Shown here piece after piece: positions 3,118 to 30,347 of a stretch of DNA of 61,471 nt. Made by a program: the position numbers and the translations under genes. The notes under the pieces are model-generated. The model saw only the letters and a program-made list of their open reading frames with translations. It did not search any database and had not been told where the DNA came from. Source of the stretch: Anaerolineales bacterium (lineage in GTDB: Bacteria; Chloroflexota; Anaerolineae; Anaerolineales; UBA4823); NCBI GenBank assembly GCA_036507795.1, contig DATCIL010000029.1:1-61471 (forward strand), in the 5' to 3' direction. Each line of letters starts with the position of its first letter. Within the stretch, counting starts at the first letter, position 1.

Positions 3118-3140
3118 TCATTCCCCCAGTATTCGTATTG

Positions 3141-3168
3141 ACCCGGCCTCTGCGCCGGGTGTTTTTTT
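3141..3168 (+). terminator. Rho-independent terminator after the receiver gene
   Basis: Stem ACCCGGC / GCCGGGT (3141-3147 / 3154-3160), 6-nt loop, then G plus T7 (3162-3168). Confidence 0.6.
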
Positions 3169-3170
3169 CT

Positions 3171-3260: not shown

Positions 3261-3332
3261 AATGATTAAATCGAAGCAGACTAGCTGTTAACTGGTTCGA
3301 TTCGAATGTCATACGCGTTCTGGAGGTTTTTG

Positions 3333-5381: not shown

Positions 5382-5392
5382 GGGACGAAGAT

Positions 5393-6487: not shown

Positions 6488-6560
6488 TAACCAGATATAT
6501 CTTATAGGAATTAGACCGGCAAACAATTCCGCAGCCTTCGCCGGAATTGATTAGCCTGGA

Positions 6561-6586
6561 GGATGACAGCCCCACAGCTGTCATCC
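6561..6586 (+). other. Intercistronic 10-bp perfect stem-loop between yeaH and spoVR
   Basis: GGATGACAGC cccaca GCTGTCATCC. A second, weaker hairpin AATTCCG / CGGAATT lies at 6525-6548. No T-run follows either one. Confidence 0.4.
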
Positions 6587-6611
6587 CGCCATTATTAGAG
6601 AAGAGACCGCG

Positions 6612-8108: not shown

Positions 8109-8177
8109 TTTAAGTGGTGGGAAATTAGTCTAAACGTAAATTTAACATATAAACCAGCTGATAAATTCACATAACTG

Positions 8178-8206
8178 TTGACAGTCGCAGCCATTTGTTA
8201 TAAACT
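8178..8206 (+). promoter_or_regulatory. Sigma-70-like promoter of the ABC transporter operon
   Basis: TTGACA (8178-8183), 17-bp spacer, TAAACT (8201-8206). This implies a leader of about 215 nt before ATG 8427. Confidence 0.45.
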
Positions 8207-8220
8207 CTGGTTTGTTATCG

Positions 8221-8247
8221 GTCCTCCAGGCGTTTCGCGAGGAGGAC
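8221..8247 (+). promoter_or_regulatory. 5-prime leader stem-loop containing an anti-SD / SD-mimic pair
   Basis: GTCCTCC (8221-8227) pairs with GGAGGAC (8241-8247). The same GGAGGAC is the real Shine-Dalgarno at 8414-8420. Confidence 0.3.
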
Positions 8248-8426
8248 GACATCTTCAAAACAAGTGACTCGCAGGAGAAGTCAGCAATTTTGAGGAGGTG
8301 AATGCTCACGAATCCTTCAGATTGAGGGCGAATGTCAATATTAGGGCTGGCAACCCGCATCGGCTTGCAGACTTCGCCTACAACCAAACTCTCCAATCAT
8401 GCTCAATTCAACAGGAGGACGGAGAA

Positions 8427-9665
8427 ATGTGGAAGAAAGGTGAGATTAAGTTCATCAGCCTTTTGATTGTGGTTGGACTTCTTCTGGTGGCCTGTGCGCA
8501 GGCAACACCCGCCCCGCAGGAACCGGCGGCGGGAGAAACGACAGCGCCAGAACCGGCCACCAGTGGAGAAGCAACCCCGATTAAGATCGGTCTAAACATA
8601 GAGGTGACCGGCGATATTCCCAAAGTAGGCGAACATGCCAGGGTCGCCGCTGAGATGTATGCCGAAGAAGTCAACGCCGCAGGAGGGGTGGATATTGGCG
8701 GAACGATGCACCCGCTTGAACTGGTAGTCGAGGATAATAATGCTACGGCTGAAGGGGCGGCATCGGCTGCCAATAAGCTGATCACGCAGGATCAAATCCA
8801 GGTGATGGTTGGTCCAAATCCCAGCGCGGCGGCGGTGCCAGCAGGCGAGGTGGCTAACAACCTGGAAACGCCCATGATCAGCCCGTGGTCGACCAATCCA
8901 AACACAACGCTAAATCGTCCCTGGGTATTCCGTGCGCCGTTCCTGGATCCCTTCCAGGGACCCGTCGTAGCCAACTTCGCTACCGAAGAGTTCAGCGCAG
9001 ATCAAGCTTGTGTTTTGTTTGACATCGCCAGCGACTACCCAAAGGGCCTGGCGGATAACTTCAAGTCCGCCTGGGAGGGAATTCACGGCGCTGGTTCCGT
9101 GGTAGCATTCGAGTCTTTTACTACCAACGACCAGGATTTCAGCGCCCAGCTGACGAAGATTAAAGGCGCGGGCTGCGATATTCTGTTCACGCCGCAGTAC
9201 TACAATCAGGTTCCCTTGATTGTGGAACAGGCCAGCGATCTTGGGCTTACCTTCCCAATCGTAGGGAGCGACTCCTGGGGAGACCCACAGCTGCTGGAAC
9301 TCTGTGGCGAAGCATGCAATGACTACTACTTCAGCACACACTATGTCGCTTCCGGCGCCACCGGCGCGACCAAGGATTTCATCGATAAATTCGAAGCCCG
9401 GCATGGAGAAATTCCCAGCGATGTGGGCGCACTCACCTGGGACTCCATGCGCCTGGTCGAGCAGGCGTTGAAAAACTGTGGGCAGATTACGGGTGACCTA
9501 GCAGCGGATCGCCAGTGCATTCGAGACGGCATGGCCGCCATCAAGGACTTTGCCGGAATTACCGGCAATATGACCTTCGACGAACAGGGAGACCCGATTA
9601 AATGCGCTGTAATCGTCAAGATCGAGAATGGCGAGTTCACTGCCTACGATTCGGCCTGTCCATAG
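8427..9665 (+). CDS. ABC transporter substrate-binding lipoprotein, branched-chain amino-acid (type-1 PBP) family
   Basis: Signal peptide with lipobox LLLVAC, a Pro/Thr/Glu linker, then a Leu/Ile/Val-binding-type fold (IKIGLNIEVTGD, VMVGPNPSAAAV). Followed by livHMGF-type genes. Start moved to ATG 8427 because GGAGGA lies 7 nt upstream. Confidence 0.85.
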   Translation: MWKKGEIKFISLLIVVGLLLVACAQATPAPQEPAAGETTAPEPATSGEATPIKIGLNIEVTGDIPKVGEHARVAAEMYAEEVNAAGGVDIGGTMHPLELVVEDNNATAEGAASAANKLITQDQIQVMVGPNPSAAAVPAGEVANNLETPMISPWSTNPNTTLNRPWVFRAPFLDPFQGPVVANFATEEFSADQACVLFDIASDYPKGLADNFKSAWEGIHGAGSVVAFESFTTNDQDFSAQLTKIKGAGCDILFTPQYYNQVPLIVEQASDLGLTFPIVGSDSWGDPQLLELCGEACNDYYFSTHYVASGATGATKDFIDKFEARHGEIPSDVGALTWDSMRLVEQALKNCGQITGDLAADRQCIRDGMAAIKDFAGITGNMTFDEQGDPIKCAVIVKIENGEFTAYDSACP

Positions 9666-9727
9666 GCAAATCGAGGTCGCCTGCTCATAATCTATTAGAT
9701 TACCGGCAGAAGTGAAAGAGAAAACGT

Positions 9728-9764
9728 GGAGAGGTGAGGCTGTGGATGGATCCCTCATCTCTCC
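9728..9764 (+). other. Intercistronic 12-bp stem-loop after the binding-protein gene
   Basis: GGAGAGGTGAGG (9728-9739) pairs with CCTCATCTCTCC (9753-9764), with one G-U pair and a 13-nt loop. No T-run follows. This position is typical of mRNA-stabilising hairpins after SBP genes. Confidence 0.4.
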
Positions 9765-9805
9765 ATGTCGTAGTGAATACCAACAAAAATAAAGGGAGCA
9801 AGCCT

Positions 9806-10738
9806 GTGGATCCCAGCCTTCTCTTACAGCACTTCATCAACGCCATGCAATGGGGGAGTTTTCTTGCATTGATTGCCGTAGGCTATACAATGGTTTACGG
9901 AGTCCTATTGTTGATAAACTTCGCTCACGGCGACATCTTTATGGTGGGTGCCTATGTTGGCTATTTTATCGGCACTTTTTTGCTGAATGGATTTGATGTT
10001 CAGCTGCCCTGGGACTTACCTTCCTGGGTTGTTATTCCAGTTACCATCGTGTTGACCATGTTTTTTACCGCAATTGTCGGAGTGGCGCTGGAAAGGATCG
10101 CTTACAGACCGATGCGCATGCGCGGCGCCCATCGGCTCTACCTGGTTATTACAGCCTTGATGGCAGGCATTTTTCTTGAATATGCAAACCTGGCAACCCT
10201 GGGAGCTCGCGACCGGCAGTTCCCCACGTTGTTTGATAAAACCGTATATAACTTTGCCGGAATAAGTATAACTAACGTAAAAATACTGGTGATCCTGCTG
10301 TCAGTCGTTTTTATGGCTATCCTGTGGTTCATCGTTCAAAGGACCAAGTGGGGTATGGCGATGCGGGCAATATCTTACGACCGCCTGGTCGTGCCGTTAA
10401 TGGGCATATCCGTCGATAATATTATTGTTGTGACCTTTATTATCGGATCCTCGATGGCAGCGCTGGCGGGAATCATGTATGGCACAGCCTTTCCGATCTT
10501 AAGTTTTGATATGGGATTGTTCGTCGGCTGGCAAGCGTTTATCGCCGCTGTCGTGGGAGGGATCGGATCGATCCGGGGAGCCATGGCGGGCGGATATATA
10601 TTGGGTTTTACGCAAATCATGGTGGCTGCTTTCCTGCCATCCACCTACCGCGACCTGATCGCTTTTAGCGTACTTCTTTTGATCCTGGTGGTAAAACCTA
10701 CCGGTCTATTTGGCGTGGCTCGCAGAACCAAGGTGTAG
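9806..10738 (+). CDS. livH: Branched-chain amino-acid ABC transporter permease (LivH type)
   Basis: LIAVGYTMVYGVLLLINFAHGD block and a multi-TM protein. GTG 9806 has AAGGGAG upstream. The track start 9734 adds a non-hydrophobic extension. Confidence 0.85.
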   Translation: MDPSLLLQHFINAMQWGSFLALIAVGYTMVYGVLLLINFAHGDIFMVGAYVGYFIGTFLLNGFDVQLPWDLPSWVVIPVTIVLTMFFTAIVGVALERIAYRPMRMRGAHRLYLVITALMAGIFLEYANLATLGARDRQFPTLFDKTVYNFAGISITNVKILVILLSVVFMAILWFIVQRTKWGMAMRAISYDRLVVPLMGISVDNIIVVTFIIGSSMAALAGIMYGTAFPILSFDMGLFVGWQAFIAAVVGGIGSIRGAMAGGYILGFTQIMVAAFLPSTYRDLIAFSVLLLILVVKPTGLFGVARRTKV

Positions 10739-10809
10739 TGAACCTGGACTTACAAAACGTAACAGAACATTGAGCTTGATAAACCATTTATGAAACAAGG
10801 AGAACGCTC

Positions 10810-11856
10810 ATGAAACGATTGGCCATGCCGTTAGTGATCGCAATCGTTTTCCTCATCACGGTAGTCCCCTCATGGTTGGGCGTTTATAGCGGTTACTATC
10901 AATTTGTGCTAATGCTCATTGGCATCAACATCACCCTGACGGTCAGCCTGAACCTGATTAACGGATACATGGGAGAGTTTTCCGTCGGGCACGCGGCCTT
11001 CATGGGCGCGGGCGCTTACGTGGCGTCAATTATTAACGTATACCTGCTGGCTGATAGCAATTTCTTTGGCCAGGCAAGAATCGCACCCGGCTGGTCGATT
11101 CTGATCTTCCCCATTTCCTTGATCCTCGGTGGGATTGCAGCCAGTTTATTTAGCTTATTGGTTGCTTTTCCCTCCTTTCGAACCCGAGGTGATTACCTGG
11201 CTATTATCACCCTGGCGGTAAATTTTATCTTCAAGAGCGTGATCGAGAATATTGACAAGATCGGAGGACCGCGTGGGTTCATGGGGATGGGAGGGGTGGT
11301 CAAGGCCATGCAGGACGTCATTAATATCCCGTGGGTGATGATTTGGGTCTTCATCGTGATGGTCTTTTCGATTTATATTGTGCGAAATCTCGTGTCATCG
11401 ATCATGGGAAAAGGAATTGTCGCCATCCGCGACGACGAAATTGCGGCAGAATTAATGACCGTCAACACCCGGCGAATGAAGGTGATCGCATTTATGCTTG
11501 CCTGCGGACTGGCCGGCATGGCGGGGGGCCTGCATGCCCATGCGGTAAGTTTTATCAACCCCTCCAGCTACTTTATTATCCAATCTACCTTCATGTTGGT
11601 AATGGTTTATTTAGGAGGAATGGGATCTCTAAGCGGATCGGTCATCAGCGCGGTCCTTTTTACGATACTACTTGAACTGATGAAACCGTTGGGCCTCTAT
11701 CGATTCGTAGTGATCCCGGTGCTGTTCATCCTCCTGATGTTGCTCAGGCCAAGCGGATTAATGGGGAATCGAGAACTGTCCGATATCTTCCCGCCCTTAC
11801 GCAAGTTTTTTGGCACTGCCGAGGAAAGGATCTCCCATGTCCCTGCTTCAGATTGA
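10810..11856 (+). CDS. livM: Branched-chain amino-acid ABC transporter permease (LivM type)
   Basis: GYMGEFSVGHAAFMGAGAY block, multi-TM, second permease of the set. Confidence 0.85.
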   Translation: MKRLAMPLVIAIVFLITVVPSWLGVYSGYYQFVLMLIGINITLTVSLNLINGYMGEFSVGHAAFMGAGAYVASIINVYLLADSNFFGQARIAPGWSILIFPISLILGGIAASLFSLLVAFPSFRTRGDYLAIITLAVNFIFKSVIENIDKIGGPRGFMGMGGVVKAMQDVINIPWVMIWVFIVMVFSIYIVRNLVSSIMGKGIVAIRDDEIAAELMTVNTRRMKVIAFMLACGLAGMAGGLHAHAVSFINPSSYFIIQSTFMLVMVYLGGMGSLSGSVISAVLFTILLELMKPLGLYRFVVIPVLFILLMLLRPSGLMGNRELSDIFPPLRKFFGTAEERISHVPASD

Positions 11857-12604
11857 GAATCTAACTCTTTACTTTGGTGGTCTACGGGCGGTCGAAAACT
11901 TCAGCCTGGAGCTTCGGCAAGACGAAACGGTGGGCTTGATCGGACCGAACGGCGCCGGAAAATCGACTGTTTTCAACGTGGTTTGCGGTCTCTATAAACC
12001 CTCTCAGGGGACAATCAAATTCAACGGACATGATCTGGTGGGCCGACATCCGCATCAAATCACGTCCCTCGGGATCGGCAGAACCTTTCAAAACATTCGC
12101 TTGTGGAACGAGCTATCCGTCTTAGATAATCTGCGGATCGCCCATTTCTCTCAAATCAAATACGGACTGCTGGACGCCTTCTTTCTTACAAACAGGTTAA
12201 GAGTGGACGAAAGGGAGGTAACAGAAGAAGCGACCGAGCTGCTGGAGTTATTCAACTTGCAGCGTTTTTGGGAGGAAATTCCACGTAACCTGTCGTATGG
12301 CGTGCAGCGCCGGGTAGAAATCTGCCGGGCCCTGGTGATGAAGCCTCAGCTGTTGTTATTGGACGAACCGGCTGCCGGGATGAATCAGGGCGAGATTATC
12401 GAACTGATCGATCTGATTCTGTGGATCCGGAATAAATTTAATGTAACTGTCTGGATTATCGAGCACCAGATGCGCGTGATCATGGGCATTTGTGACCGAA
12501 TTAAGGTCATCGATTTCGGCAATACAATTGCGGAAGGCACTCCAGATGAGATCAGGAATAATCCAAGGGTTATCCAGGCCTATTTGGGCGAGGAGGTGCC
12601 CTGA
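11837..12604 (+). CDS. livG: ABC transporter ATP-binding protein (LivG type)
   Basis: Walker A GPNGAGKST, signature LSYGVQRRVEICRAL, Walker B LLLLDEPAAGM. ATG 11837 (MSLLQIENL) follows AGGAAAGGA. Confidence 0.9.
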   Translation: MSLLQIENLTLYFGGLRAVENFSLELRQDETVGLIGPNGAGKSTVFNVVCGLYKPSQGTIKFNGHDLVGRHPHQITSLGIGRTFQNIRLWNELSVLDNLRIAHFSQIKYGLLDAFFLTNRLRVDEREVTEEATELLELFNLQRFWEEIPRNLSYGVQRRVEICRALVMKPQLLLLDEPAAGMNQGEIIELIDLILWIRNKFNVTVWIIEHQMRVIMGICDRIKVIDFGNTIAEGTPDEIRNNPRVIQAYLGEEVP

Positions 12605-13329
12605 TGCTGCTCTCCATCAGAGATTTGGTTGTCCGCTATGGTGCCATCCAGGCCCTACATGGTATATCATTGGACGTGCGAGAAGGAGAAATTGTCACCT
12701 TGATCGGCGCGAATGGCGCGGGGAAATCCACCACCCTTTGGGCGATCATCCGCCAAATCAGCGAACTTGGCGGCAAGGTAACTTCCGGCAGCATAACCTA
12801 CAAAGACCAGGATCTTTTGGGCTACTCGGCCCACGAAGTTGTCAACAAATTTGGGATTTCGCTGGTGCCCGAAGGCCGGCGCGTATTTGGGAATCTAACG
12901 GTCTTAGAAAACCTAAGGTTGGCCACATTCTATCGTAAAGATCAGGATGGGATCAAGGAAGATCTGGAGCGCGTTTTCGGCGTGTTTCCCCGGTTAAATG
13001 AGAGAAAAGATCAACTTGCAGACCTGCTGAGCGGAGGAGAACAGCAAATGCTGGCTGTCGGGCGGGCATTGATGACGCGTGGATCCCTGATCTTGCTTGA
13101 CGAACCCTCGATGGGTCTCGCACCCGTCCTGGTACAGACTCTCTTTCAATCCCTGGCAGAGATCAACAAGATGGGAACAACGATGCTCTTGATCGAGCAG
13201 AACGCCAATATGGCTCTGAAATACGCCAGCCGGGCCTACGTCATTGAAACCGGCAATATCGTTCTTGCCGGACCTGCGAGTGAAATCGCTCAAAATTCTG
13301 AAGTAAAAAATGCCTACCTGGGAACTTAA
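12604..13329 (+). CDS. livF: ABC transporter ATP-binding protein (LivF type)
   Basis: Walker A GANGAGKST, signature LSGGEQQMLAVGRAL, Walker B LILLDEPSMGL. Its start overlaps the livG stop. Confidence 0.9.
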   Translation: MLLSIRDLVVRYGAIQALHGISLDVREGEIVTLIGANGAGKSTTLWAIIRQISELGGKVTSGSITYKDQDLLGYSAHEVVNKFGISLVPEGRRVFGNLTVLENLRLATFYRKDQDGIKEDLERVFGVFPRLNERKDQLADLLSGGEQQMLAVGRALMTRGSLILLDEPSMGLAPVLVQTLFQSLAEINKMGTTMLLIEQNANMALKYASRAYVIETGNIVLAGPASEIAQNSEVKNAYLGT

Positions 13330-14444
13330 TTCTGGAGATAGAACCGGGGCACCCGAGAACCAATTCCACAAACGACTTCATAATTAATCGTCCCCCAGGC
13401 GTCCGCGACGTCCTCAGCAGTGATATGGACGTCGCCTTGTTTTCCGATCAAAACAGCCTCATCGCCCAGCATTGCTTCCGGAACCGAATCCAGGTTTACC
13501 ATGACCTGGTCCATGCAAACCCGTCCTACTACCGGAACCCGCTGACCGGCGACAAGCACAGCATTCCCTGCAGCCCGGCGATAACCGTCGGCATAACCAA
13601 CCGGTAATGTGCCAATCCGCTCATTCTTCTGGGTAACGTAGACATGGCCATAGCTGATCCCGCGACCCGGCGGCATCATTTTTATGTGGCTGATCACGGT
13701 TTTCCAGGTTAGGGCGGGTGAAAAGCTGGATGGTAAGCGACAGTTTGGCGCGGGATGCAATCCGTAGATCGATACTCCAGCCCTAATCAGATTAAAATAG
13801 ACGCTGGGCCGCGTCAGGCTGGCAGCCGAATTCGAGGTATGGATCAGGTCCGGTCTGATTTTTGCTTCTGAAAGCTTGCTTAAGACCGTCAGAAATTGGC
13901 TTTCCTGGCTTTCGGTTGTGGTGGTATCTACCTCATCAGCCCGGGCGAAATGCGTAAAAATCCCTTCAAAGATCACATTTGGAGCGCGGCTGATTTGCAC
14001 AGCGAGTTCCAATGTCTCCTCGGGTTGGATCCCCAATCTACCCATTCCGGTGTCTACCTTAAGATGCACTCTACCCGGCTTACCCAACTGTCCGGCTAGC
14101 CTGGCAACATCCTGAAGCTGGCGCGTATCCCATAGCGTTAGAGACAGGTTATTCTCAATTGCAACGGAATATTTCGAGGGGGGCGTGTATCCCAACAAGA
14201 GGACTGGCGCGGAAATATCCGCCCGGCGAAGTTCAAGGGCTTCTTCGAGCCTGGCAACACCCAGCCAATTTGCGCCTCCGCGAAGCGCCGCCCGGGCAAC
14301 TGGTGCGGAGCCGTGACCATACGCATTCGCTTTGACGACCGCCATCACCTGAACCTGCGTCAGCTGACGAAGTTGAGCAATATTCGTCTCTATTGCCTTG
14401 AGATCGATCTCCACCCAACAGGAATAGGATGCTCCTGGACCCAT
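13326..14444 (-). CDS. alr: Alanine racemase
   Basis: PLP-lysine motif AVVKANAYGHG and the expected length (372 aa). Confidence 0.9.
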   Translation of the reverse strand: MGPGASYSCWVEIDLKAIETNIAQLRQLTQVQVMAVVKANAYGHGSAPVARAALRGGANWLGVARLEEALELRRADISAPVLLLGYTPPSKYSVAIENNLSLTLWDTRQLQDVARLAGQLGKPGRVHLKVDTGMGRLGIQPEETLELAVQISRAPNVIFEGIFTHFARADEVDTTTTESQESQFLTVLSKLSEAKIRPDLIHTSNSAASLTRPSVYFNLIRAGVSIYGLHPAPNCRLPSSFSPALTWKTVISHIKMMPPGRGISYGHVYVTQKNERIGTLPVGYADGYRRAAGNAVLVAGQRVPVVGRVCMDQVMVNLDSVPEAMLGDEAVLIGKQGDVHITAEDVADAWGTINYEVVCGIGSRVPRFYLQN

Positions 14445-14515
14445 GGAAGGGAGTATACCCAGAAATCGAAGCCAGGAAAAGAGGTTTGCGCCAAGCTGTG
14501 TTATATTAATTGATT

Positions 14516-17332
14516 ATGGACAATTGGAATAAATTTCACGGCCCAAACATTGGCTACGTCCTTGAACTCTATGAAAAATATCAACAAGATCCCAACTCCG
14601 TCGATGAAACGACCCGCAATTTCTTTAAACACTGGACTCCACCCAGCGAGGCAAGACGCAGGATCCCGGCCGGTGAAGCTCCCGAAATCCAGAAAATCAT
14701 TGGTGCAGTCAATTTAACCCTTGCGATCCGCGCATTCGGACATCTCGGCGCAAACCTCGATCCATTGGGGAGCCAACCACCGGGCGATCCATGGCTGGAA
14801 ATCAGGCATCACGGTCTCACCGAATCTGACCTTCAGACTCTGCCCGCGGATGTTGTCGGTGGTCCCATTGCGGAAGAAGCGGAGAATGCTTTGGATGCTG
14901 TCCAGGCGCTAAAAGACGTCTACATGGGCACGATTGGCTATGACTACGAACACGTTCATAATCCAGAGGAACGCCAATGGCTGCGCCATGCGGCCGAATG
15001 TGGAGAATTCAGACCGCCCGGCGATCCAATCGACCCCAAATCGCTATTGGAACGCCTGACCAGGGTAGAAACCTTCGAGCGCTTCCTCCACCGCATATTT
15101 CCTGGTAAGACACGCTTTTCGATTGAGGGCCTCGATATGCTGATCCCCGTGGTGGATGAAATCATCGGGGCAGCTGCGGAGGCCAATATCTGCATGGTCA
15201 TGCTCGGGATGGCGCATCGCGGGCGGATCAATTTCCATGCCCACATCCTCAACAAACCTTACGCCCGCATCCTGGCAGAATTCAAAGACCCAGGGGCCAA
15301 TTTCACCACTCGAAATGAGCTGGGTTGGACGGGGGACGTCAAGTATCACAAGGGAGAGCGCCATGCCATCAAAGGGGGTGAAATGACCCGAATTATCGTA
15401 TCCATGGCGCCAAACCCAAGCCATTTGGAACATGTAAATCCAGTCGTTATGGGTATGGCTCGGGCAGCCGGGAGCAAGATTGATGAGCCCGGCCCTCCCG
15501 AGTTGTTTCCAAATGCGGCCCTCCCCCTCCTCATTCATGGCGATGCATCTTTTACGGGGCAGGGCATTGTCGCAGAAACGTTAAATTTTTCTCAGCTTCC
15601 AGGCTACTCTGTTAGCGGTACCGTGCACATCATCGCTAACAACCAATTGGGCTTCACCGCAGACCCGCGTGAAGAACGCAGTACCCTCTATGCCAGCGAT
15701 CTGGCGAAGGGCTTCGAAATTCCGATAATTCATGTTAACGCGGATGATCCAGAAGCCTGTATCGAAGCGGCCCGCACCGCGTTTGCTTACCGGGACAAGT
15801 TTAAGAAAGATTTCTTGATTGATTTAATCGGATACCGCAAATATGGCCATAATGAGGGTGATGAGCCCAGCTTCACACAACCGTTGATGTATGAAAAAAT
15901 CAGAAGCCACCCTTCTGTAAGAGAGATCTGGGCCCACGAGCTGGTCCGGCGAGGAGAAATTGAAGACGATCTGCCCGAACAGCTGGTGCAGGAGGTGATG
16001 GATGAACTCCAGCAGGTTTTGGAAGACCTGGAGCCGGAGCAGGAGATCCTGAAACCGCAGTTGGAACCGCCGCCCGCCGGTGAGGCCAGGCGTGTAAAGA
16101 CGGCCGTACCTCTGAACAAGCTGCGCGAGCTCAACGAAGGACTTCTAAATATCCCGGAAGATTTCCACCTGCATCGCAAGATCGAACGCGTCATGCAGCA
16201 ACGGCGTAAGGTCTTAGACGATGCTGATGAAGCCAGCATTGATTGGGCGACGGCTGAAGAATTGGCGCTGGGCAGTATTCTGGCCGATGGTACGGCCGTT
16301 CGAATGAGTGGCCAGGATGTTGAACGCGGCACATTCAGCCAGCGACACGCTGTTTTTCATGATGTCGAAGATGGCAAGAAATTCAGCCCGCTACATTCAC
16401 TGCCAGCCGCTAATGCAGCCTTTGAGATTATTAACAGCCCGCTAACAGAAAGCGGCGCGATCGGGTTCGAGTTTGGTTACAACATCCAAAACCCCAGCAG
16501 TCTGGTAATTTGGGAGGCTCAATACGGGGACTTTATCAACATCGCCCAGGTCATGATCGATGAGTTTGTCGCATCTGCCCGGGCGAAATGGGAGCAAACG
16601 CCATCACTGGTGCTTTTGCTCCCGCACGGGCATGAAGGTCAGGGACCGGATCACTCGAGCGGGCGCCCCGAGCGGTTTCTGCAGCTGGCAGCGCAGACCA
16701 ACATGCGTATTGCCAACTGCACTACGGCGGCGCAGTTTTTCCACCTGCTTCGCCGCCAGGCGGCATTGCTTGAGTCAGATCCTCTTCCGCTGATTGTGAT
16801 GACTCCCAAGAGCCTGCTGCGCCACCCGAGAGTCGCCAGCACGCCCAGGCAATTGGCCGAGGGCAGCTGGCAACCCATCATCGATGATGAGCGAGCCAGC
16901 CGTGAACCTGAGAAAGTCCGCCGGTTGATTCTATGCAGTGGCAAGATTTTTGTGGATTTGGCGACCAGCCAGCATTTTGGTTCCAGTAATCACCTGGCCA
17001 TCGTGAGGCTGGAGCAGCTTTATCCCTTCCCGGCAACCGATCTCCAGCCAATCTTCGACAAATATGCAAATATTGAAGAGGTGGTCTGGGTGCAGGAGGA
17101 ACCGAAGAATATGGGCGCCTGGACCTTCGCTAAATCCCGCATAAGGGAAATGACTGGGGACCGCTGGCCCCTGCATTATATTGGACGCGTTGAGAATGCC
17201 AGCCCCGCCGAAGGATCGACAGCCTGGCATGCAGTCAACCAGCAAGCCATCATTGAGCAGGCATTTGATTTACAGGCCTTCAAGAAAGAGCCTGAAGCCG
17301 TTCAAGAAGGTGGAATTGTGGAAAGGGAATAA
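14516..17332 (+). CDS. sucA: 2-oxoglutarate dehydrogenase E1 component
   Basis: About 940 aa with E1o blocks [27 protein letters not shown] and [19 protein letters not shown] 14516 lies two codons inside the TTG of the track. Confidence 0.9.
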
Positions 17333-23267: not shown

Positions 23268-24485
23268 ATGAGTATAAGCCAGCTGGCCAGGTCAATTGTT
23301 GACTCACCGACATTAAGACTCAACGAAGAAGCCCGGCTGTTACGTGAACGGGGCCAACCGGTCATCCATCTGGGGATCGGCGAACCCAAAAATAGGGCAC
23401 CGATCACGGCAATATTAAGTTCGGCCGCCAAATTAAGCAGTGGGGATGTCAAATATACACCCACTGACGGCATACCCTCACTCAAGAAAGCTATCATCAA
23501 GTATACCGAGGAGAATTACAACCGGCTGGTGGCACCTGAAAACATCATCGTAACTACAGGAGCCAAACAATCCCTTTATAATATCCTCTTTTCAGTCATA
23601 AACCCACAAGACGAGGTACTTATCCTAGTCCCCTACTGGGTCAGCTACCCGGAAATGGTCAAAATGGTGTATGGAGTACCCGTGATCGTGAGACCGGAGG
23701 ACGGTACTTTCTATCCACGCATGGAGGATATCCTTGAAGCAGTCACTTCGTACACGAAGGCTATCATCGTCAATAGCCCTAATAATCCTTCGGGAGTGGT
23801 ATATCCCAAGGACTTTATCGCTGAGATCGTCGAGTTCTGCGAAAAAAAGGGCATCTATCTCATCATGGACGATATTTATCATAAACTCGTGTTCGATGGG
23901 AAAACCGCCGTCCCTGGATATCAATTCACAAAAAAAGATGTCGAGAATACCAGGGTTATCCTGGTTAATGGAGTATCAAAAATCTACGGGATGACCGGTT
24001 TCCGCATTGGTTGGGTGATCGCAAGCCGGCGCATGGTGGAGGTGATGACCAACGTTCAGGCGCAGATGACGTCAAACGTCTCCGTAGTTCTGCAGGCGGC
24101 GGCCGAAGGAGCGCTTACCGGCATGCAGAGTGTAGTTGAGAGCTTGCGCCTGACTATTGAAAACAACCGCAATGTCATCATGCAGGAATTGAGAGGCTTC
24201 ACGGATATTCGCGTTACTAAACCTGAGGGTACATTTTACTGCCTACCAGATTTCCGTGCTTATGGCAAAGACTCGGTCGAGCTCTCGAAATACCTATTGA
24301 AAAAAGCCCTGGTAGTCACGGTGCCTGGAAAAGAATTTGGAATGGAAGGGCACCTTCGCCTGAGTTTTGCCGGATCGGTGAAAGATCTAACCGAAGGGAT
24401 CGCACGGATTAAGTGGGCCCTGGACCCCAACGCACCGAAAGAAATTTACATTGGAGATCGCAAACTTGTCCGAGATTGGCTATGA
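23268..24485 (+). CDS. Class I pyridoxal-phosphate aminotransferase (aspartate aminotransferase-like)
   Basis: NSPNNPSG block and PLP-lysine block VSKIYGMTGFRIGW. Confidence 0.85.
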   Translation: MSISQLARSIVDSPTLRLNEEARLLRERGQPVIHLGIGEPKNRAPITAILSSAAKLSSGDVKYTPTDGIPSLKKAIIKYTEENYNRLVAPENIIVTTGAKQSLYNILFSVINPQDEVLILVPYWVSYPEMVKMVYGVPVIVRPEDGTFYPRMEDILEAVTSYTKAIIVNSPNNPSGVVYPKDFIAEIVEFCEKKGIYLIMDDIYHKLVFDGKTAVPGYQFTKKDVENTRVILVNGVSKIYGMTGFRIGWVIASRRMVEVMTNVQAQMTSNVSVVLQAAAEGALTGMQSVVESLRLTIENNRNVIMQELRGFTDIRVTKPEGTFYCLPDFRAYGKDSVELSKYLLKKALVVTVPGKEFGMEGHLRLSFAGSVKDLTEGIARIKWALDPNAPKEIYIGDRKLVRDWL

Positions 24486-26128
24486 ACAACCTGCTTAACA
24501 TCAAAACACCTGCCCAAGACCAGGCAAAAGAGCTCATAAGCGATTTTGGTCTTGAGAATCATGGCTTGACCAATCTGCGAGCAGTCTACTGGAACTTGCC
24601 ATCCGAAGCACTTTATGAAGAGATCGTCTTCCGGAGCGAAGGAAACATTTCCCATCTTGGCCCGATACTTGTTTATACAGGAAAGCACACTGCCAGGGCT
24701 GCAAACGATAAATTTATTGTTAAGGAGCCTGCCACAGAAGATCATATCTGGTGGGGCCAATACAACCGCCCGTACAGCCGGGAAAAGTTCGAAGAGCTGT
24801 ATTCCCGGCTTCAAGGTTACCTGCAAGGAAAGGACGTGTTTATTCAAGACTGTTACGGCGGCGCAGATCCAGATTACCGTTTGCCGCTCCGGATTATCAC
24901 CGAGTACGCCTGGCACAGCTTGTTTGCGCGAAATATGTTCATTTTGCCCGAAACCGCGGAGGAGTACCGGTGGCATATGCCTGAATTTACGGTACTATGC
25001 GTGCCCTCCTTTAAAGGTTACCCACCCATCGATGGCACCCCATCGCAAACCTTCATCATAATCAATTTCGAACAAAAACTCTGCGTAATCGGAAACACGG
25101 CTTACGGAGGAGAGATCAAAAAATCCGTTTTCACGCTGCTTAACTACCTGCTCCCGCTGAAGGGCGTGATGACGATGCACTGCTCGGCAAATATGGGTAA
25201 GGATGGAGATGTTGCCTTGTTCTTCGGTCTCTCTGGAACCGGTAAAACCACCCTGTCCGCTGATCCAAATCGCCGGTTGATCGGAGACGATGAGCACGGT
25301 TGGAGCGATCAGGGCGTGTTCAACTTTGAAGATGGTTGCTACGCCAAGGTTATCCAGCTATCTCCCACTGCCGAACCGGAAATTTTTGCCTGCACCCGAA
25401 GATTTGGCACCATCTTGGAAAACGTGGTCTTTGATCCGGTCACCCGCTTTATTGATCTGGACGACGACGCCTTTACGGAAAACACCCGGGCTTCATATCC
25501 CTTGGATTACATCGATAATGCGGTGCCAGCAAAAATGGGAGGGCATCCCAAGAACATCCTACTTTTAACCTGTGATGCCTCCGGCGTCATGCCGCCAATT
25601 GCCAGGTTAACCCCAGACCAGGCCCTATATCACTTTATATCAGGATATACTTCAAAAGTGGGCGGCACTGAGATCGGATTGGGCGAGGAGCCGGAAATCA
25701 CCTTCAGCACGTGCTATGGCGCCCCCTTCATGGTACACCACCCCCGCTTTTACGCCGAGCTGCTGAAGCTCAAAATCTTGCGATATGGGGTAAACTGCTG
25801 GCTGCTCAATACCGGCTGGGTGGGTGGCCCATATGGTATCGGAAAGCGGATCAGCATCGGACATACGCGCGCCATGCTCAGCGCCGCTCTGGCAGGCGAT
25901 TTGTTGGAGGTCGAATATGCCATCGACCCCGTGTTCGGATTTGAAGTCCCCAAAACCTGTCCAAACGTGCCGGATGCCGTGCTTAGCCCGGCGGCCTCTT
26001 GGCCGAGCAGAGCGGAATACATAAAAAAGTATCGCGAACTGGCGGCCCGGTTTATCGACAACTTCCATAAGTTTACCGACCATCCGGCAGTAAAAGAATT
26101 GGAAGCAGCAGGACCCAGGCGCATTTAG
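24482..26128 (+). CDS. pckA: Phosphoenolpyruvate carboxykinase (ATP)
   Basis: Kinase-1a motif GLSGTGKTTLS, IGDDEHGW, and the expected length. ATG 24482 overlaps the aminotransferase stop (ATGA). Confidence 0.9.
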   Translation: MNNLLNIKTPAQDQAKELISDFGLENHGLTNLRAVYWNLPSEALYEEIVFRSEGNISHLGPILVYTGKHTARAANDKFIVKEPATEDHIWWGQYNRPYSREKFEELYSRLQGYLQGKDVFIQDCYGGADPDYRLPLRIITEYAWHSLFARNMFILPETAEEYRWHMPEFTVLCVPSFKGYPPIDGTPSQTFIIINFEQKLCVIGNTAYGGEIKKSVFTLLNYLLPLKGVMTMHCSANMGKDGDVALFFGLSGTGKTTLSADPNRRLIGDDEHGWSDQGVFNFEDGCYAKVIQLSPTAEPEIFACTRRFGTILENVVFDPVTRFIDLDDDAFTENTRASYPLDYIDNAVPAKMGGHPKNILLLTCDASGVMPPIARLTPDQALYHFISGYTSKVGGTEIGLGEEPEITFSTCYGAPFMVHHPRFYAELLKLKILRYGVNCWLLNTGWVGGPYGIGKRISIGHTRAMLSAALAGDLLEVEYAIDPVFGFEVPKTCPNVPDAVLSPAASWPSRAEYIKKYRELAARFIDNFHKFTDHPAVKELEAAGPRRI

Positions 26129-26135: not shown

Positions 26136-27314
26136 ATGACAAGTTTGCGCGAACTCATCAGCCGCTGGTTTTCTAAGGTGGAGCCCTTACCGGCGGGGAT
26201 CTATAGCTTTAAGGCACCCAGGGATGCATCCAAACAATACCGTCTGCATCTGCGCCTGGAGCCAGATGGGCGAGGCCTGCTCTTGATCAATGCTGCTACA
26301 GTGCTACATCTCAACCCGACTGCAGCGGAATACGCGTACCACCTGGTGCAAAAGGCTCCCAGGGAAGAGGCTGCCCGGCAAGTCTCCAGGCGCTACCGAG
26401 TCAGCTATGAAATAGCCATGCAAGATTACGTGGAATTCAGCGAATTCGTGGAATCTCTGTTGGAGGTACCTGATTTAGAACCAATCAGCTCCTTCGAAAC
26501 AGGTCGACAACAACCTTACTCGGGGCGGATTTCGGCCCCCTACCGTCTGGATTGCGCCCTGACATACCGCCAGTTGGAGAGCTGTGCCGGCTCGCCTGGT
26601 TCGGTTTTTATAGAGCTAACGACCGCGGAGTGGAAATCAATCCTGGACAAGGCCTGGGCGGCCGGTATCCCTCACGTTATCTTGACCGGTGGAGAGCCCA
26701 CCCTGCGCCCAGACCTGGTAGAGCTGCTGGATCACGCCGAGCAGCTGGGCATGGTTACCGGGCTGCTCACCGATGGCCAGCGCCTGGGCGACTCGGCATA
26801 CCTGGACGCGCTACTCCAGGCTGGATTGGACCACACAGTGATTGTGCTAGAACCACAAAGAGACGAGAGCTGGGAAACTTTAATAAGTCTTACCTATTGG
26901 AAAGAAGCTTTAGAGGCTGACCTGCATATCGTCGCTCACCTGACAATCACCCCCGATAATGCCCCACAGGCTGGCGCGCTGCTGGAGGGGCTGGCGGGGA
27001 CCGGCGTCCACGCCGTTTCACTGAGCGCCAGCAATCCTTCCCTTGCCAGCGTCCTAAGCGCTGCCCGCGAGCACGCGGCTTTGCTCGGATTGACTCTTGT
27101 CTGGGACTTGCCGGTGCCTTATACAGATTTGAATCCGATCGCAATAGAAACCGCAGATGAAAGTCCGGCTCCGGGAGCCGGGCGAGCCTGGCTCTACGTT
27201 CAGCCAAATGGAGATGTTCTCCCCGCCCGGGGGCGGGATCGCGTCCTGGGCAATATTCTGAGGGATCCCTGGGAGGCAATTTGGGTTCAAACCAATAGAC
27301 CTCCGCACCTATAA
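26136..27314 (+). CDS. Degenerate radical SAM/SPASM paralog lacking all Fe-S cysteines (pseudo-rSAM) with an N-terminal PqqD-like domain
   Basis: Collinear with ORF 28391-30013. Compare HLRLEPDGRGLLLINAATVLHLNPTAAEYAYHLV, APYRLDCALTY, GIPHVILTGGEPTLRPDL and QPNGDVLP..LGNILRDPWEAIW. At the CxxxCxxC position it reads RQLESCAGSPG, and the SPASM cysteines are absent. Confidence 0.75.
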   Translation: MTSLRELISRWFSKVEPLPAGIYSFKAPRDASKQYRLHLRLEPDGRGLLLINAATVLHLNPTAAEYAYHLVQKAPREEAARQVSRRYRVSYEIAMQDYVEFSEFVESLLEVPDLEPISSFETGRQQPYSGRISAPYRLDCALTYRQLESCAGSPGSVFIELTTAEWKSILDKAWAAGIPHVILTGGEPTLRPDLVELLDHAEQLGMVTGLLTDGQRLGDSAYLDALLQAGLDHTVIVLEPQRDESWETLISLTYWKEALEADLHIVAHLTITPDNAPQAGALLEGLAGTGVHAVSLSASNPSLASVLSAAREHAALLGLTLVWDLPVPYTDLNPIAIETADESPAPGAGRAWLYVQPNGDVLPARGRDRVLGNILRDPWEAIWVQTNRPPHL

Positions 27315-27331: not shown

Positions 27332-28348
27332 TCATTTATTCCACGCCTGAGCATAAATGGCGCTAAAAAAATCGGCGGACAAGGGATCTTCTCCTCCGAT
27401 CATCAGGCGTTCTCCATCGATCGCGCGAACTTGAAGCGCGCCTGGGGGAACCGAACCGGCCAATTCGCTCTGAAGACATGCTACCCAGCTTTCCAGCCCG
27501 ATATCCACTTTGGGTAACCATTTCGGCTGATAATTCCGATACAGCCGGGCATGCTCTTCATCCAATACGAGCCACTCAAGGTGATGCTCCAGCAAGCGCA
27601 GGTCCGCGTTATTCGCAGTAATGCGAGCGACGTCATGACGAGCTCGTCCCAGGTGCTTCTGATAATAATCTCGGGTTGCATCTAAGTCATGACCGCCGAC
27701 CCTGCGAGCGGTATGGAGGACCAGGGCGCGCAGTGGTGCTGTGAAGTTTATTATGTTTAGCGGTTGGCCGTCACTCGCCTCCAGCAACTCAAGGAATGGT
27801 TCTTCGTAGGGTTGGAGAATGACTGCATGCTGCTGAGCTGCCTGGCGGCGAAGGGCAGCGCGGGTCTGAACATCGGCGGCAACACCGCGCGTGCGGTAAT
27901 CCGGATTTACGGTCATCACCAGATGCGATTGTCCAGCAGGTTGGAGAATACCCTTCTTTACCAGGCCAACCATGACGGCGGCCAGGACAGTATTGAGAGG
28001 CATTGCCAGGAGGCTGGCAGCTTCAGGTGCGGTTAACCCGCGCTTGATACCGCCGCCCTCAACGACAGCAACTGCAGGCTGATAAGCCGGTTTCTTCCTG
28101 CGAGCTGGCCTAAATGCAAATATGGATAAGACCAGCAGGGGGATAAAGGCTAAAAGTTGCGCTAAAGGACTGATCCAAAAGAGCATCGTGAGCCCGAGGC
28201 TGAGCAGGGCAAATACAACCCGACCGGTTCCTCGGCTCTTTCGAAAGAAAAAAAACCCGAAGAGGGCGAGAAATGAAAAGCCCGCCAAGAGGCGAACTTC
28301 GGGGTGCCGCATGAACCAAATGAAAAGATTCGTCAATGTATTCGTCAT
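27332..28348 (-). CDS. Hypothetical membrane protein (3 N-terminal TM helices plus a soluble domain of about 240 aa), no family recognised
   Basis: 338-aa ORF 42 nt downstream of the radical SAM gene on the same strand. Hydrophobic segments LLAGFSFLALFGFFFF, VVFALLSLGLTMLFWI and LLAFIPLLVLSIFAF. Confidence 0.65.
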   Translation of the reverse strand: MTNTLTNLFIWFMRHPEVRLLAGFSFLALFGFFFFRKSRGTGRVVFALLSLGLTMLFWISPLAQLLAFIPLLVLSIFAFRPARRKKPAYQPAVAVVEGGGIKRGLTAPEAASLLAMPLNTVLAAVMVGLVKKGILQPAGQSHLVMTVNPDYRTRGVAADVQTRAALRRQAAQQHAVILQPYEEPFLELLEASDGQPLNIINFTAPLRALVLHTARRVGGHDLDATRDYYQKHLGRARHDVARITANNADLRLLEHHLEWLVLDEEHARLYRNYQPKWLPKVDIGLESWVACLQSELAGSVPPGALQVRAIDGERLMIGGEDPLSADFFSAIYAQAWNK

Positions 28349-28390: not shown

Positions 28391-30013
28391 TTACTTTTGA
28401 GTATTCAACCTTGGGCTTGGGAATGAATCCAGGTCTTCCAGGGAAATTAGACCGGTCATATTGCCTGTCGATCGCCGGTCGGTCCGAACCATTCCTTCGG
28501 TGGGGATAAAACCAGCGGTGTGAAGCGGGTTGAGGTGATGATTGGTCCCGCACGCTCCACTGCATCCTGAGCATCCGCCGCCCGCACCTTCTGCAATACG
28601 ATTTCCTTCCCGGGCTTCCCGCTCGATACGACATCCACCCCCGCACAGGGGCAGGTCGGGGCAATCCCAACACTTCTCAGGGAGCCCGGCCCATTGCGGA
28701 TCCAGCTCACGATCGCGGAAGCTGCGGAAAAGCTCTCCGTTCCAAATCTGGTCCCAGGGATCCCGCAAAAGGTTCCCGGCCGACACATAGTAGGATTGGC
28801 ACGGCAGCACATCGCCATTTGGCTCGATACATAACGAATATTCGCCAGCGTTGCAGCGCTTGGCACCGATTTCTAACTCAACGGGGTTCATGCGGCAGTA
28901 TTCGGTAGGCGTGTACCACAGAAAACGCATGCCGAGTTCGGCAGCTCGATCCCTGACGCGAACCAGCAGTGGAGGCATATCTTCCTCTGGGATAGCGTTG
29001 GGATGAGCAAAACCGCCGCCAGAGTAGATCATCCCATTCATGGCAAAAGTGCGCACACCCAGTTCGTGCAGGAATTCCACGATCGCCTCAGCATGGTTCA
29101 TGTTGGTACGCATCAACGTGGTGTTGGTGATGGTGTAGACTCCGCTCTCTAAGGCATTCAGAATGCCTCGCACGGTCTGGTGGAAAGAGGCTGCGCCCAT
29201 CATGGCATCATGAACGGTAGGTATGTGGGAGCCAAGGGTAACCTGCACGTGGTTGAGTCCAGCTTCAGCCAGGGTTTGCATATAGGGTTTGTGTTGGATG
29301 CGGCGCCCGTTCGTATTCAGTCCCACAATCGGACCGAGGCGGTCTGCGTAGGCGATTATCTCAGGAAGGTCGGGATGGAGCGTGGCCTCCCCACCGGTAA
29401 GGATGATATGCGGAACGCCTACCTCAACAAGTTTATCAATGACCTGCTTCCATCCTTCCAGGGGCAAGGAGGGCATCTCCAAACGATCCGGCTCGTTGTA
29501 GCAATGCGGGCATTCATTATTGCAACCATATGTCAGGGCGATATCGACCTTATAGGGCGCATGGATTCGGGTGCTGAACATCGGCGCCTGGCCCAAGCTT
29601 TCTATTTCGCAGGTTGGGCAGCTCTCGCCGGGTGAAGAGAATCGCTCCACCATCGTGTAGATTTGGTCGATCTCCCGATCTAAATGGTCAGGTTCGGCGA
29701 TCTCGTAGTGCGCCAGCAGGCGTACTCGAGCTTGAGAACGAGGCACGCCATCCAAGGCTAACTTGGCCATCCAGGCCGCGGTGGGATTAAGGTGAATCAC
29801 ATCGGTGACATCCACGAACAGGACGCCGGCCCCATTTCGCTCTATCCGTAGATGGTTTCGAAATTTAATATCAAGGGAAGAAAAGCGGTAAGTGTAGAGG
29901 CCCGGCGCGGGAGGAGCTTGTTCAGGAAAGGCAGAAAATAGATTGCGGGAATCCTGCCATAAGCCATTCCATACCCGGCGAGCGAGGGCGGGCGAGTGTA
30001 ATATATCGGTCAT
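28391..30013 (-). CDS. Radical SAM/SPASM enzyme with N-terminal PqqD-like (RRE) domain and Cys/Gly-rich C-terminal tail
   Basis: CNNECPHC (nt 29501-29524), ILTGGEATLHPDL, and SPASM cysteines PCQSY...CWDCPDLPLCGGGCRIE. N-terminal HLRIERNGAGVLFVDVTDVIHLNPTAAWMAKLALDG. The tail contains GGGCSGCSGACG. Confidence 0.85.
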   Translation of the reverse strand: MTDILHSPALARRVWNGLWQDSRNLFSAFPEQAPPAPGLYTYRFSSLDIKFRNHLRIERNGAGVLFVDVTDVIHLNPTAAWMAKLALDGVPRSQARVRLLAHYEIAEPDHLDREIDQIYTMVERFSSPGESCPTCEIESLGQAPMFSTRIHAPYKVDIALTYGCNNECPHCYNEPDRLEMPSLPLEGWKQVIDKLVEVGVPHIILTGGEATLHPDLPEIIAYADRLGPIVGLNTNGRRIQHKPYMQTLAEAGLNHVQVTLGSHIPTVHDAMMGAASFHQTVRGILNALESGVYTITNTTLMRTNMNHAEAIVEFLHELGVRTFAMNGMIYSGGGFAHPNAIPEEDMPPLLVRVRDRAAELGMRFLWYTPTEYCRMNPVELEIGAKRCNAGEYSLCIEPNGDVLPCQSYYVSAGNLLRDPWDQIWNGELFRSFRDRELDPQWAGLPEKCWDCPDLPLCGGGCRIEREAREGNRIAEGAGGGCSGCSGACGTNHHLNPLHTAGFIPTEGMVRTDRRSTGNMTGLISLEDLDSFPSPRLNTQK

Positions 30014-30110: not shown

Positions 30111-30347
30111 TTAAAGGGCCCAGGCCAACATCAAGCCGAATATTGCCAGAACGACTCCAAGATGTAAAAAAAGGTGGCTATTGCCCACCCAACCAGCCCC
30201 CGGGAAAAATTGCAGCACGCCATTGATAACCACAAACAGAATGCCGATCAAGGGCAAAAGACCTTTGCGGTGGGCGAAGAAATCTGAGAGCTTGTCCAGG
30301 ATTTTATTGATGCTTGGCTGCATGCGGACCCCAGCGATCAGGATCAT
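30111..30347 (-). CDS. Small two-TM membrane protein, no family recognised
   Basis: 70-78 aa (alternative start MQPSINK at 30323). Amphipathic N-terminus followed by LLPLIGILFVVINGVLQFF and LHLGVVLAIFGLMLAWAL. Sits between hflX and the radical SAM gene. Confidence 0.5.
   Translation of the reverse strand: MILIAGVRMQPSINKILDKLSDFFAHRKGLLPLIGILFVVINGVLQFFPGAGWVGNSHLFLHLGVVLAIFGLMLAWAL

Follow-up and report, generated by a model that had tools for sequence, protein, structure and literature searches.

Several described systems bear on the locus that we report here. TrnC and TrnD, the radical S-adenosylmethionine (SAM; radical SAM, rSAM) proteins of thuricin CD, form a tight complex; the main task of TrnD in it is to bind the leader, and full modification is still supported by a TrnD mutant that lacks the rSAM cluster (PMC12093266). 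StsB works together with the RRE protein StsC, and sactionine links join Cys2, Cys4 and Cys6 to Gly15, Gly13 and Gly11 of the CxCxC core of StsA (PMC10288494). Our subject is a gene on a stretch of 61,471 nucleotides (nt) from an Anaerolineales bacterium (contig DATCIL010000029.1 of assembly GCA_036507795.1, the whole of which is called the window below). It encodes a relative of such enzymes that we call pseudo-rSAM A, or copy A. The evidence supports that pseudo-rSAM A is a maintained pseudoenzyme, the Cys-less descendant of an RRE-radical SAM-SPASM peptide maturase, and we infer that its role is most likely that of a non-catalytic partner which binds the substrate or serves as a scaffold.

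Families of this kind are found in databases. TIGR04347 of NCBIfam ('pseudo-SAM/SPASM protein', pseudo_SAM_Halo) comprises curated rSAM/SPASM homologs that lack the cluster Cys and stand near active rSAMs, and TIGR04150 is the 'pseudo-rSAM protein, GG-Bacteroidales system', which we take to have a GG-leader precursor and an rSAM maturase nearby. We know of no pseudo-rSAM database family with a tested role. The concept is already known from NCBIfam, and the precedent to which an initial annotation of the window had appealed holds as a concept in the form of TIGR04347, of which copy A is not a member. The present family and its gene cassette are undescribed; Pfam and NCBIfam hold no model specific for the family, and full-text literature searches found no paper on it.

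Lost and kept elements of pseudo-rSAM A

Pseudo-rSAM A aligns with an active paralog of 540 amino acids (aa) in the same window over 410 columns, with 32% identity (BLASTP, E = 1e-61). The active enzyme has CNNECPHC, PNGDVLPC and CWDCPDLPLCGGGC, is matched by Pfam Radical_SAM over profile positions 3-166 (88 bits) and by SPASM (49 bits), and is 64-78% identical to its counterparts of other lineages. In pseudo-rSAM A, nt 26556-26600 encode ALTYRQLESCAGSPG (residues 141-155), which aligns with ALTYGCNNECPHCYNE of the active enzyme (nt 29492-29539), and the three-Cys [4Fe-4S] motif, CxxxCxxC or a variant of it, is gone; the loop has Arg, a Cys that is not conserved and Ser/Pro instead. Further on, PNGDVLPA (nt 27204-27227) stands aligned to PNGDVLPC, and 28 aa remain before the C-terminus, fewer than the about 35 aa first given. 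The stop codons of pseudo-rSAM A and of a convergent 338-aa gene are 17 nt apart, so no SPASM remnant is hidden behind the gene. The loss of CxxxCxxC and of the SPASM cysteines, which the initial annotation had claimed, is thus borne out by the alignment and also by Pfam, where Radical_SAM (PF04055) matches with 36.5 bits (cut-off 29.5) at profile positions 25-104 of 166 only and the SPASM domain (PF13186, a seven-Cys pattern that includes CxxCx5CxxxC and serves one or two auxiliary clusters) was not found.

That annotation had also counted one Cys in the segment instead of three. This Cys, C150, is there, but it is strain-specific: in its place an 85%-identical ortholog has His, and other sequences have Ala, Ser or Val. 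The sole Cys that is conserved in the family is C140 in RLDCALTY (117 of 121 sequences), which is no ligand position because active enzymes have Ile or Leu at the aligned position. Through the canonical ligands, pseudo-rSAM A can hold neither the [4Fe-4S] cluster of radical SAM nor the auxiliary clusters of SPASM.

The RRE-like N-terminus and the GGE motif are retained, as had been said from the start, and both are among the family-invariant positions, with R36, L39, R40, T55, L57, H58, N60, A63, E65 and A67 in the RRE-like part and with GGE residues that are common to the active paralogs. Pfam PqqD (PF05402), a winged-helix-like domain of three strands and three helices that binds peptides, matches pseudo-rSAM A with 17.1 bits (E = 0.0069), under the cut-off of 23.4, and a precomputed match to the same model is present on many orthologs. 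We built an AlphaFold2 model of pseudo-rSAM A on 67 orthologs (pLDDT 81, pTM 0.82), in which the predicted N-terminal domain has four strands, within residues 21-59, and three helices, within 61-110. The parts of low confidence are the linker 114-127, the former cluster loop 147-156 (pLDDT <50) and residues 330-349, where the active enzyme has the first cysteines of SPASM in the alignment. The barrel is a partial (beta/alpha)6 TIM barrel that is homologous to PF04055 and carries the GGE motif. The best folds in the PDB for the model (Foldseek) are SuiB (5v1s), PqqE (6c8v) and SkfB (6efn), with matches also to BlsE and MoaA, and the alignments to the RRE-bearing SuiB and SkfB cover about the whole model; for the sequence profile of the family the top PDB match is PqqE (E = 1.8e-16).

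Of 117 columns that are conserved across twelve active paralogs, 54 survive in the pseudo-rSAM family. Retained are FTGGEPTLR.DL (the GGE block), HLR.E..G.L..NA..LHLN.TA (RRE-like), GLDH and GDVLP. The family has lost the three cluster Cys with the adjacent aromatic residue, every SPASM Cys and the whole CxxCx5CxxxC block, which is missing throughout the alignment. Other elements have been replaced or deleted, NTN(G)R having become L-T/S-D-G and TNTT having become H.T, while a 14-residue IYSGxG loop is gone. The coordinates of these and other features are collected in Table 1.

Table 1. Features of the pseudo-rSAM A region and of related loci; positions are those of the window unless a locus is named.
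Feature	Position	Strand	Basis
Pseudo-rSAM, copy A (392 aa)	26136..27314	+	Open reading frame (ORF), partial Pfam Radical_SAM match, Cys-less orthologs
RRE-like (PqqD-like) N-terminal domain, residues 1-112	26136..26471	+	Sub-cut-off PqqD match, predicted structure
Strand beta-1 and degenerate former cluster-binding loop YRLDCALTYRQLESCAGSPGSVFIE, which holds 26556-26600	26541..26615	+	Alignment to YKVDIALTYGCNNECPHCYNE of the active enzyme
GGE motif region VILTGGEPTLRPDL, retained	26676..26717	+	No variation at T184, G185, G186 and E187 among 67 aligned orthologs
What is left, without Cys, of the SPASM/twitch region's first part (PNGDVLPA ... DPWEAIW), and C-terminus	27204..27311	+	Alignment to PNGDVLPC...DPWDQIW
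pckA, ATP-dependent phosphoenolpyruvate carboxykinase	24482..26128	+	Pfam PEPCK_ATP, E = 1.2e-208
338-aa membrane protein with three transmembrane (TM) helices, convergent with pseudo-rSAM A	27332..28348	-	tblastn paralogy, TM prediction
Active RRE-radical SAM-SPASM enzyme, 540-aa type	28391..30013	-	Pfam Radical_SAM and SPASM
Degenerate rSAM paralog, 466 aa, between a 540-type enzyme and a tail protein	L030 (G033) 6264-7664	-	
548-aa tail protein ending in CACACAGCACACAGGGR	L005 (own-genome contig C400) 1498-3144 (-); L029 5784-7430		

Conservation and selection in the family

The ortholog set consists of the best 120 of thousands of relatives among 5.8 billion proteins (51-99% identity, 381-423 aa), and the named sources are Chloroflexota, Anaerolineales or Anaerolineaceae. 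Not one of the 120 has Cys at a column that is Cys in the active paralog. The three cluster-ligand columns hold mostly Leu, Ala/Ser and Glu/Asp, and exactly one Cys is present in 92 of the orthologs. CxxxCxxC and the SPASM block are also absent from the 21 best full-length representatives (E <= 1e-88) of a library that was clustered at 50% identity, in which the first Cys-bearing relatives appear at about E = 1e-86.

When family-conserved columns are defined by a conservation of at least 90%, the pseudo-rSAM alignment has 127 of them. Pseudo-rSAM A matches 122, that is five deviations against a family mean of 3.6 (standard deviation 3.1), and pseudo-rSAM B, a second copy in the same genome that is described below, retains 120. 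Copy A is a regular member of the family also by a length within 380-400 aa, by the lack of ligand Cys and by its placement in the pseudo clade, and its match to the family profile has E = 2e-186.

The ratio of nonsynonymous to synonymous substitution rates (dN/dS) between pseudo-rSAM A and the 85%-identical ortholog, on locus L007, is 0.20 (NG86) or 0.30 (YN00), to be compared with 0.08 and 0.11 for pckA and with 0.21 and 0.28 for the neighbouring FAD/Fe-S oxidoreductase. Within the gene the barrel is the most constrained part (0.11), followed by the RRE-like domain (0.17) and the C-terminus (0.30), and the highest value, 0.50, is that of residues 113-160, which contain the former cluster loop. 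Judged from these comparisons of sequences, the family is conserved under purifying selection. The initial annotation had favoured a maintained non-catalytic protein over a decaying one, and had looked to orthologs for conserved Cys loss and for purifying selection. This has held up, with the Cys loss in 120 of 120 orthologs and in the 21 clustered representatives, and with a dN/dS of 0.20. A decaying pseudogene is ruled out by the intact frame, by the same ratio and by the 122 of 127 columns.

The tail-protein cassette and the two copies in the source genome

Around the orthologs on long contigs there is a conserved set of genes, which encode a zinc-ribbon membrane protein (about 120 aa, with a C4 zinc ribbon), a membrane protein with a Cys-Ala tail (the tail protein), an active RRE-rSAM-SPASM enzyme, the pseudo-rSAM and a class-I methyltransferase. 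The tail protein has about 550 aa, a signal peptide and one TM helix (type I), and its C-terminus ends in CACACAGCACACAGGGR, a run of 17 residues that is made of two CACACAG heptads and GGR and is identical in 119 of 120 homologs, although these share only 58-99% overall identity. The tail has seven or eight Cys in a CxCxC pattern and is predicted to be cytoplasmic by the positive-inside rule. In an AlphaFold2 model the ectodomain is a beta-sandwich with a resemblance to ribophorin I and to the N-domain of M1 peptidases; after the TM helix come a cytoplasmic domain made of helices and then the tail, which is disordered. Neither Pfam nor NCBIfam has a model that matches the tail protein, and its 120 homologs are called hypothetical by all sources that give them a name. 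Some homologs have 770-790 aa instead of about 550, and two genomes (at G008:C126 and G017:C5) have two full-length copies of the gene in tandem.

Matches to the rSAM family and the tail protein are both found in the same 31 of 41 related genomes. At the level of the phylum, the pseudo-rSAM is present in 24 of 301 genomes and the tail protein in 24, with both in 23. As far as gene order and co-occurrence tell, the pseudo-rSAM belongs to the tail-protein system. The first proposal of a partner for the neighbouring active enzyme was therefore too narrow, as the unit is a five-gene cassette around a tail protein that is encoded outside the window, and the genome has two pseudo-rSAM genes. An anti-phage defence system was also considered and rejected, since PADLOC gave nothing for the cassette membrane proteins and only generic viperin-type similarity for the rSAMs.

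Relatives of the pseudo-rSAM are encoded in at least 574 species-level genomes. The best 80 of them are all Anaerolineales, Anaerolineaceae or Chloroflexota metagenome-assembled genomes (MAGs), Ornatilinea, Longilinea and Anaerolinea included, and the pseudo-rSAM clade is almost confined to one Chloroflexota order, which is Anaerolineales by the names in the source records. Two arrangements are common among the 80 loci. In the first (Type 1, about 54) the tail protein is followed by an active rSAM of 454 aa, the pseudo-rSAM and the methyltransferase; in the second (Type 2, about 13) the order is tail protein, pseudo-rSAM, a convergent pair and then the methyltransferase, and the pair consists of a membrane protein of about 335 aa and an active rSAM of about 540 aa, both transcribed towards the pseudo-rSAM. 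Two Chloroflexota outside the order (G054 and G059) have the tail protein and the 454-aa active enzyme and no pseudo-rSAM; G059 also has the methyltransferase, and a zinc-ribbon ORF was seen in G059 and not in G054.

In a maximum-likelihood tree, which is rooted at the midpoint only, the pseudo-rSAMs form a clade with 100/100 support and the active enzymes another with the same support, inside which the 540-aa type groups with the 454-aa enzymes of the order (100/98) on a long branch. The pseudo-rSAM probably arose by duplication of the 454-aa active maturase at or near the base of the order. All clusters would then have disappeared from one copy of the maturase, while the other stayed active and would in some lineages have given rise later to the 540-aa type. 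In an unrelated lineage (G033) the 540-aa enzyme is paired with a different, Cys-poor degenerate paralog of 466 aa, which has lost CxxxCxxC and GGE and retained CxxCx5CxxxC; it either became an inactive partner independently or is a highly divergent one. More Cys-less forms, of 440-460 aa, occur among the distant representatives at 50% identity, and with these and the G033 paralog the pairing of an active enzyme with a degenerate paralog is a recurring theme.

The canonical cassette of the source genome is on another contig of the same assembly (C400), where the order is zinc ribbon, 548-aa tail protein, pseudo-rSAM B (384 aa) and methyltransferase. An 18.6-kb contig, L029, is 99% identical to this locus and shows, within positions 87-15666, the cassette between pstSCAB-phoU and a Rieske-SufU-SufS-SufDBC block. 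On L029 only about 50 nt separate the tail gene from pseudo-rSAM B, so the 454-aa active enzyme is missing from the canonical locus. In a genome of the same genus (G001) the 454-aa enzyme stands precisely between these two genes, and the pseudo-rSAM of G001 is the sister of copy B (97/86). No gene for a 454-type enzyme was found anywhere in the source assembly, which is a fragmented MAG (82% complete, 726 contigs). The pattern recurs in G021, a genome from another genus of the family, which has two pseudo-rSAMs and, at a different place, one 540/338 pair, and which lacks a 454-type enzyme. A link of the cassette to suf genes was rejected, as it is confined to loci of the source organism's family (L029, G001, G004 and G021) and absent in L001, L003, L004, G054 and G059; pst/phoU beside the cassette was also seen in G021.

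Pseudo-rSAM A itself lies outside the cassette and follows pckA, and the adjacency to the 338-aa/540-aa pair is kept as in Type 2. The window thus holds a paralogous three-part module (pseudo-rSAM A, 338-aa protein, 540-aa enzyme) that coexists with a cassette lacking its own active enzyme, and the placement of copy A beside pckA is a lineage-specific relocation. The cytoplasmic domain of the tail protein has a paralog in the 338-aa protein, since tblastn with tail proteins of 557-562 aa hits nt 27494-28156 with E = 2e-10 to 4e-15 and the motif GGGIKRGLTAPEAA is in both; the 338-aa protein has no ectodomain and no Cys-Ala tail. At the loci that we examined, the 338-aa type always adjoins the 540-aa enzyme type. 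In a check for horizontal transfer the GC content of the window module was 57.5% vs 51.7%. The 540-aa type has an extension of about 80 aa after SPASM, with GGGCSGCSGxCG at residues 478-489 (28547-28582, minus strand of the window), which recalls the Gly/Cys-rich tail of the substrate; the 454-aa type is without this extension. Between hflX and the 540-aa enzyme there is also an ORF of 78 aa with two TM helices (30111-30347, minus strand), found in L033 too, which was rejected as a conserved cassette member or precursor, being absent beside the 540-type enzyme in L001, L003 and L004.

Upstream, the order on the plus strand is aminotransferase, pckA and pseudo-rSAM A, facing the 338-aa and 540-aa genes on the minus strand. 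The stop codon of pckA (TAG, 26126-26128) is followed by the ATG of pseudo-rSAM A at 26136 after a 7-nt spacer. A consensus scan of this spacer gave no convincing promoter- or terminator-like site, which would be compatible with co-transcription with pckA. The pckA ORF is longest when read from the GTG at 24413, with 73 nt (window 24413-24485) shared with the aminotransferase gene; a start at the ATG at 24482 (MNNLLNIK) reduces the overlap to 4 nt at the aminotransferase stop and yields a protein of 548 aa, the length seen in relatives. The same order, the 338-aa and 540-aa genes included, is found in the assemblies L033 and L034, and in the 85%-identical relative (L007) aminotransferase, pckA and pseudo-rSAM stand in this order up to the contig end, which comes just after the pseudo-rSAM. 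Among 80 named genomes examined, however, the pseudo-rSAM is adjacent to pckA in none, and the adjacency is limited to the source lineage and tells nothing general about function. That the gene starts 8 nt past the pckA stop was correctly noted at the outset, but the adjacency is no evidence of a link to carbon metabolism, and a general functional link of this kind is rejected.

Proposed role, rival explanations and known systems

The most rational account, and one that we consider fairly probable as a whole, is that pseudo-rSAM A is a maintained pseudoenzyme that serves as the cluster-free partner of an active enzyme on the tail-protein system. It would be a subunit that holds the substrate or acts as a scaffold and takes no part in the radical chemistry. 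By its RRE-like domain and the former active-site face it could bind the tail protein, or the 338-aa paralog, and in complex with it the active enzyme would modify the Cys-Ala tail, possibly with thioether cross-links. Of the two copies, A would then work for the 540/338 module and B for the tail protein. A bolder version, which we offer tentatively and regard as rather doubtful in its entirety, is that active and inactive rSAMs form a heteromer which matures the cytoplasmic Cys-Ala tail of a whole membrane protein, with the pseudo-rSAM as an obligate subunit that is free of clusters. In the source genome this machinery would have been duplicated, and the second module, of pseudo-rSAM A, the tail-less 338-aa paralog and the 540-aa enzyme with its own GGGCSGCSGACG tail, would have taken over after the active enzyme of the cassette had been lost.

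Some observations weigh against a substrate-holding partner. The active enzymes retain an RRE-like domain of their own, and for this reason an extra recognition subunit is not obviously needed. Copy B persists without an adjacent active enzyme, which means that the tie may be to the tail protein or to the methyltransferase and not to an rSAM partner. For the assignment of the 4.6-kb contig C400 to the same organism there are two grounds, the binning and the fact that copy B is sister to the pseudo-rSAM of the same genus (97/86). The remodelling goes beyond the clusters (NTN, TNTT, IYSGxG), and SAM binding is therefore not to be assumed from GGE alone and may be gone in spite of it. Finally, the polar residues that are invariant and specific to the barrel (D139, E187, D232, H233, H268, T270, S295 and D360) could be signs of a new ligand-binding or catalytic site, which would make the barrel more than a scaffold.

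This last point leads to the strongest of the other explanations, which is that the pseudo-rSAM is a neo-functionalised enzyme, where the remodelled barrel has gained a new cluster-free catalysis, for instance a non-radical SAM-dependent or lyase-type step on the tail. The polar residues just named, with S297 beside S295, are at or near predicted barrel strands, a conserved Cys140 has been gained, the barrel is the most constrained part of the gene and GGE has been kept. However, Pfam, NCBIfam and PADLOC recognise no known catalytic motif, and the cassette already has a dedicated methyltransferase; to our knowledge there is no precedent for a catalytically active cluster-less rSAM barrel either. 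We think that a new enzyme of this kind is unlikely, though worth bearing in mind.

It is less likely again that the protein is a sensor of SAM or metabolites or a regulator, which would bind SAM, S-adenosylhomocysteine or another nucleoside at the GGE region and tune the maturase or the methyltransferase. The invariance of the GGE motif and the place of copy A in an aminotransferase-pckA operon in the source lineage could speak for such a function. Against it, further barrel elements that the active paralogs conserve have been replaced or deleted, the linkage to pckA is missing in the 80 other genomes examined, and what the pseudo-rSAM strictly co-occurs with is the tail protein, not genes of metabolism. 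Even slimmer is the chance that an Fe-S cluster or another metal is still carried, by non-canonical ligands or in trans, from a seven-Cys tail that docks at the former cluster loop. Cys140 is conserved on strand beta-1 beside that loop and the CxCxC pattern of the seven- or eight-Cys tail can bind metal, but most orthologs have just one Cys, most invariant His are shared with the active paralogs, as would be expected of structural residues, and the loop itself is poorly conserved and predicted to be disordered. That copy A is a strain-specific decay product or a redundant duplicate heading for loss is hardly credible, even if a second copy stands at the canonical site of the same genome and copy A has moved away from the cassette, as the Cys loss dates to the origin of the family, the 85%-identical ortholog has the same synteny and the idea is refuted by the ortholog alignment and dN/dS, together with the intact frame and the conserved columns.

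A large and strongly conserved pseudo-rSAM family that is tied to one clear candidate substrate is a tractable system for studying what an rSAM without clusters can do. The source genome, with two pseudo copies, one divergent active enzyme and a cassette without an active enzyme, offers a contrast that permits tests of partner specificity, and if the bolder version above is right it would be a natural experiment in which each type of active enzyme needs its own dead partner. The cassette also points to an undescribed modification of the tail of a whole protein.

Compared with the known families, pseudo-rSAM A differs from TIGR04347 and TIGR04150 in taxon, in architecture (a fused RRE and a truncated SPASM) and in cassette. 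The TIGR04347 model gives 46.7 bits against a cut-off of 525, at residues 155-291 only, TIGR04150 is not among the 25 best NCBIfam matches of pseudo-rSAM A (E worse than 1e-4), and the neighbourhood of pseudo-rSAM A contains no genes for a GG-leader precursor and the corresponding rSAM maturase. The PqqE model (TIGR02109) gives 66.3 bits (cut-off 381) at residues 160-247 only, and there are no pqq genes nearby. Membership in TIGR04347 or in the PqqE, NirJ, MoaA, StsB and GeoRSP families was rejected, since all scores are far under the cut-offs.

In PqqE/PqqD and MftC/MftB a non-catalytic RRE protein presents the substrate to an rSAM-SPASM enzyme, and PqqE is the closest solved relative of the pseudo-rSAM. 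PqqD and MftB are stand-alone RREs of about 90 aa, whereas the pseudo-rSAM keeps a remodelled rSAM barrel and the active enzyme has an RRE-like domain of its own. For the chemistry of the tail, StsB may by analogy be the nearest characterised case; the Cys-Ala tail has, like StsA, a CxCxC pattern with nearby Gly, but StsA is a small peptide, and the StsB model (NF045574) gives only 90 bits on the active 540-aa paralog, far under the cut-off of 625.

The arrangement of the proteins is most like that of the TrnC/TrnD sactisynthases, in that two paralogous rSAM proteins of the RRE type are encoded together, and TrnC and TrnD act as a complex on one substrate. TrnD has all its clusters and cleaves SAM, while the pseudo-rSAM is without the ligands and without the second half of SPASM, and in place of a small precursor peptide the presumed substrate here, as deduced from the genes, is the tail of a membrane protein of 550 aa. 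In TrnC/TrnD one rSAM partner is needed for binding and its own radical chemistry is dispensable, and the pseudo-rSAM family would be a natural and fully degenerate version of the same principle. On the bolder version proposed above, the pseudo-rSAM would be the evolutionary end-point of a division of labour of the TrnC/TrnD type.

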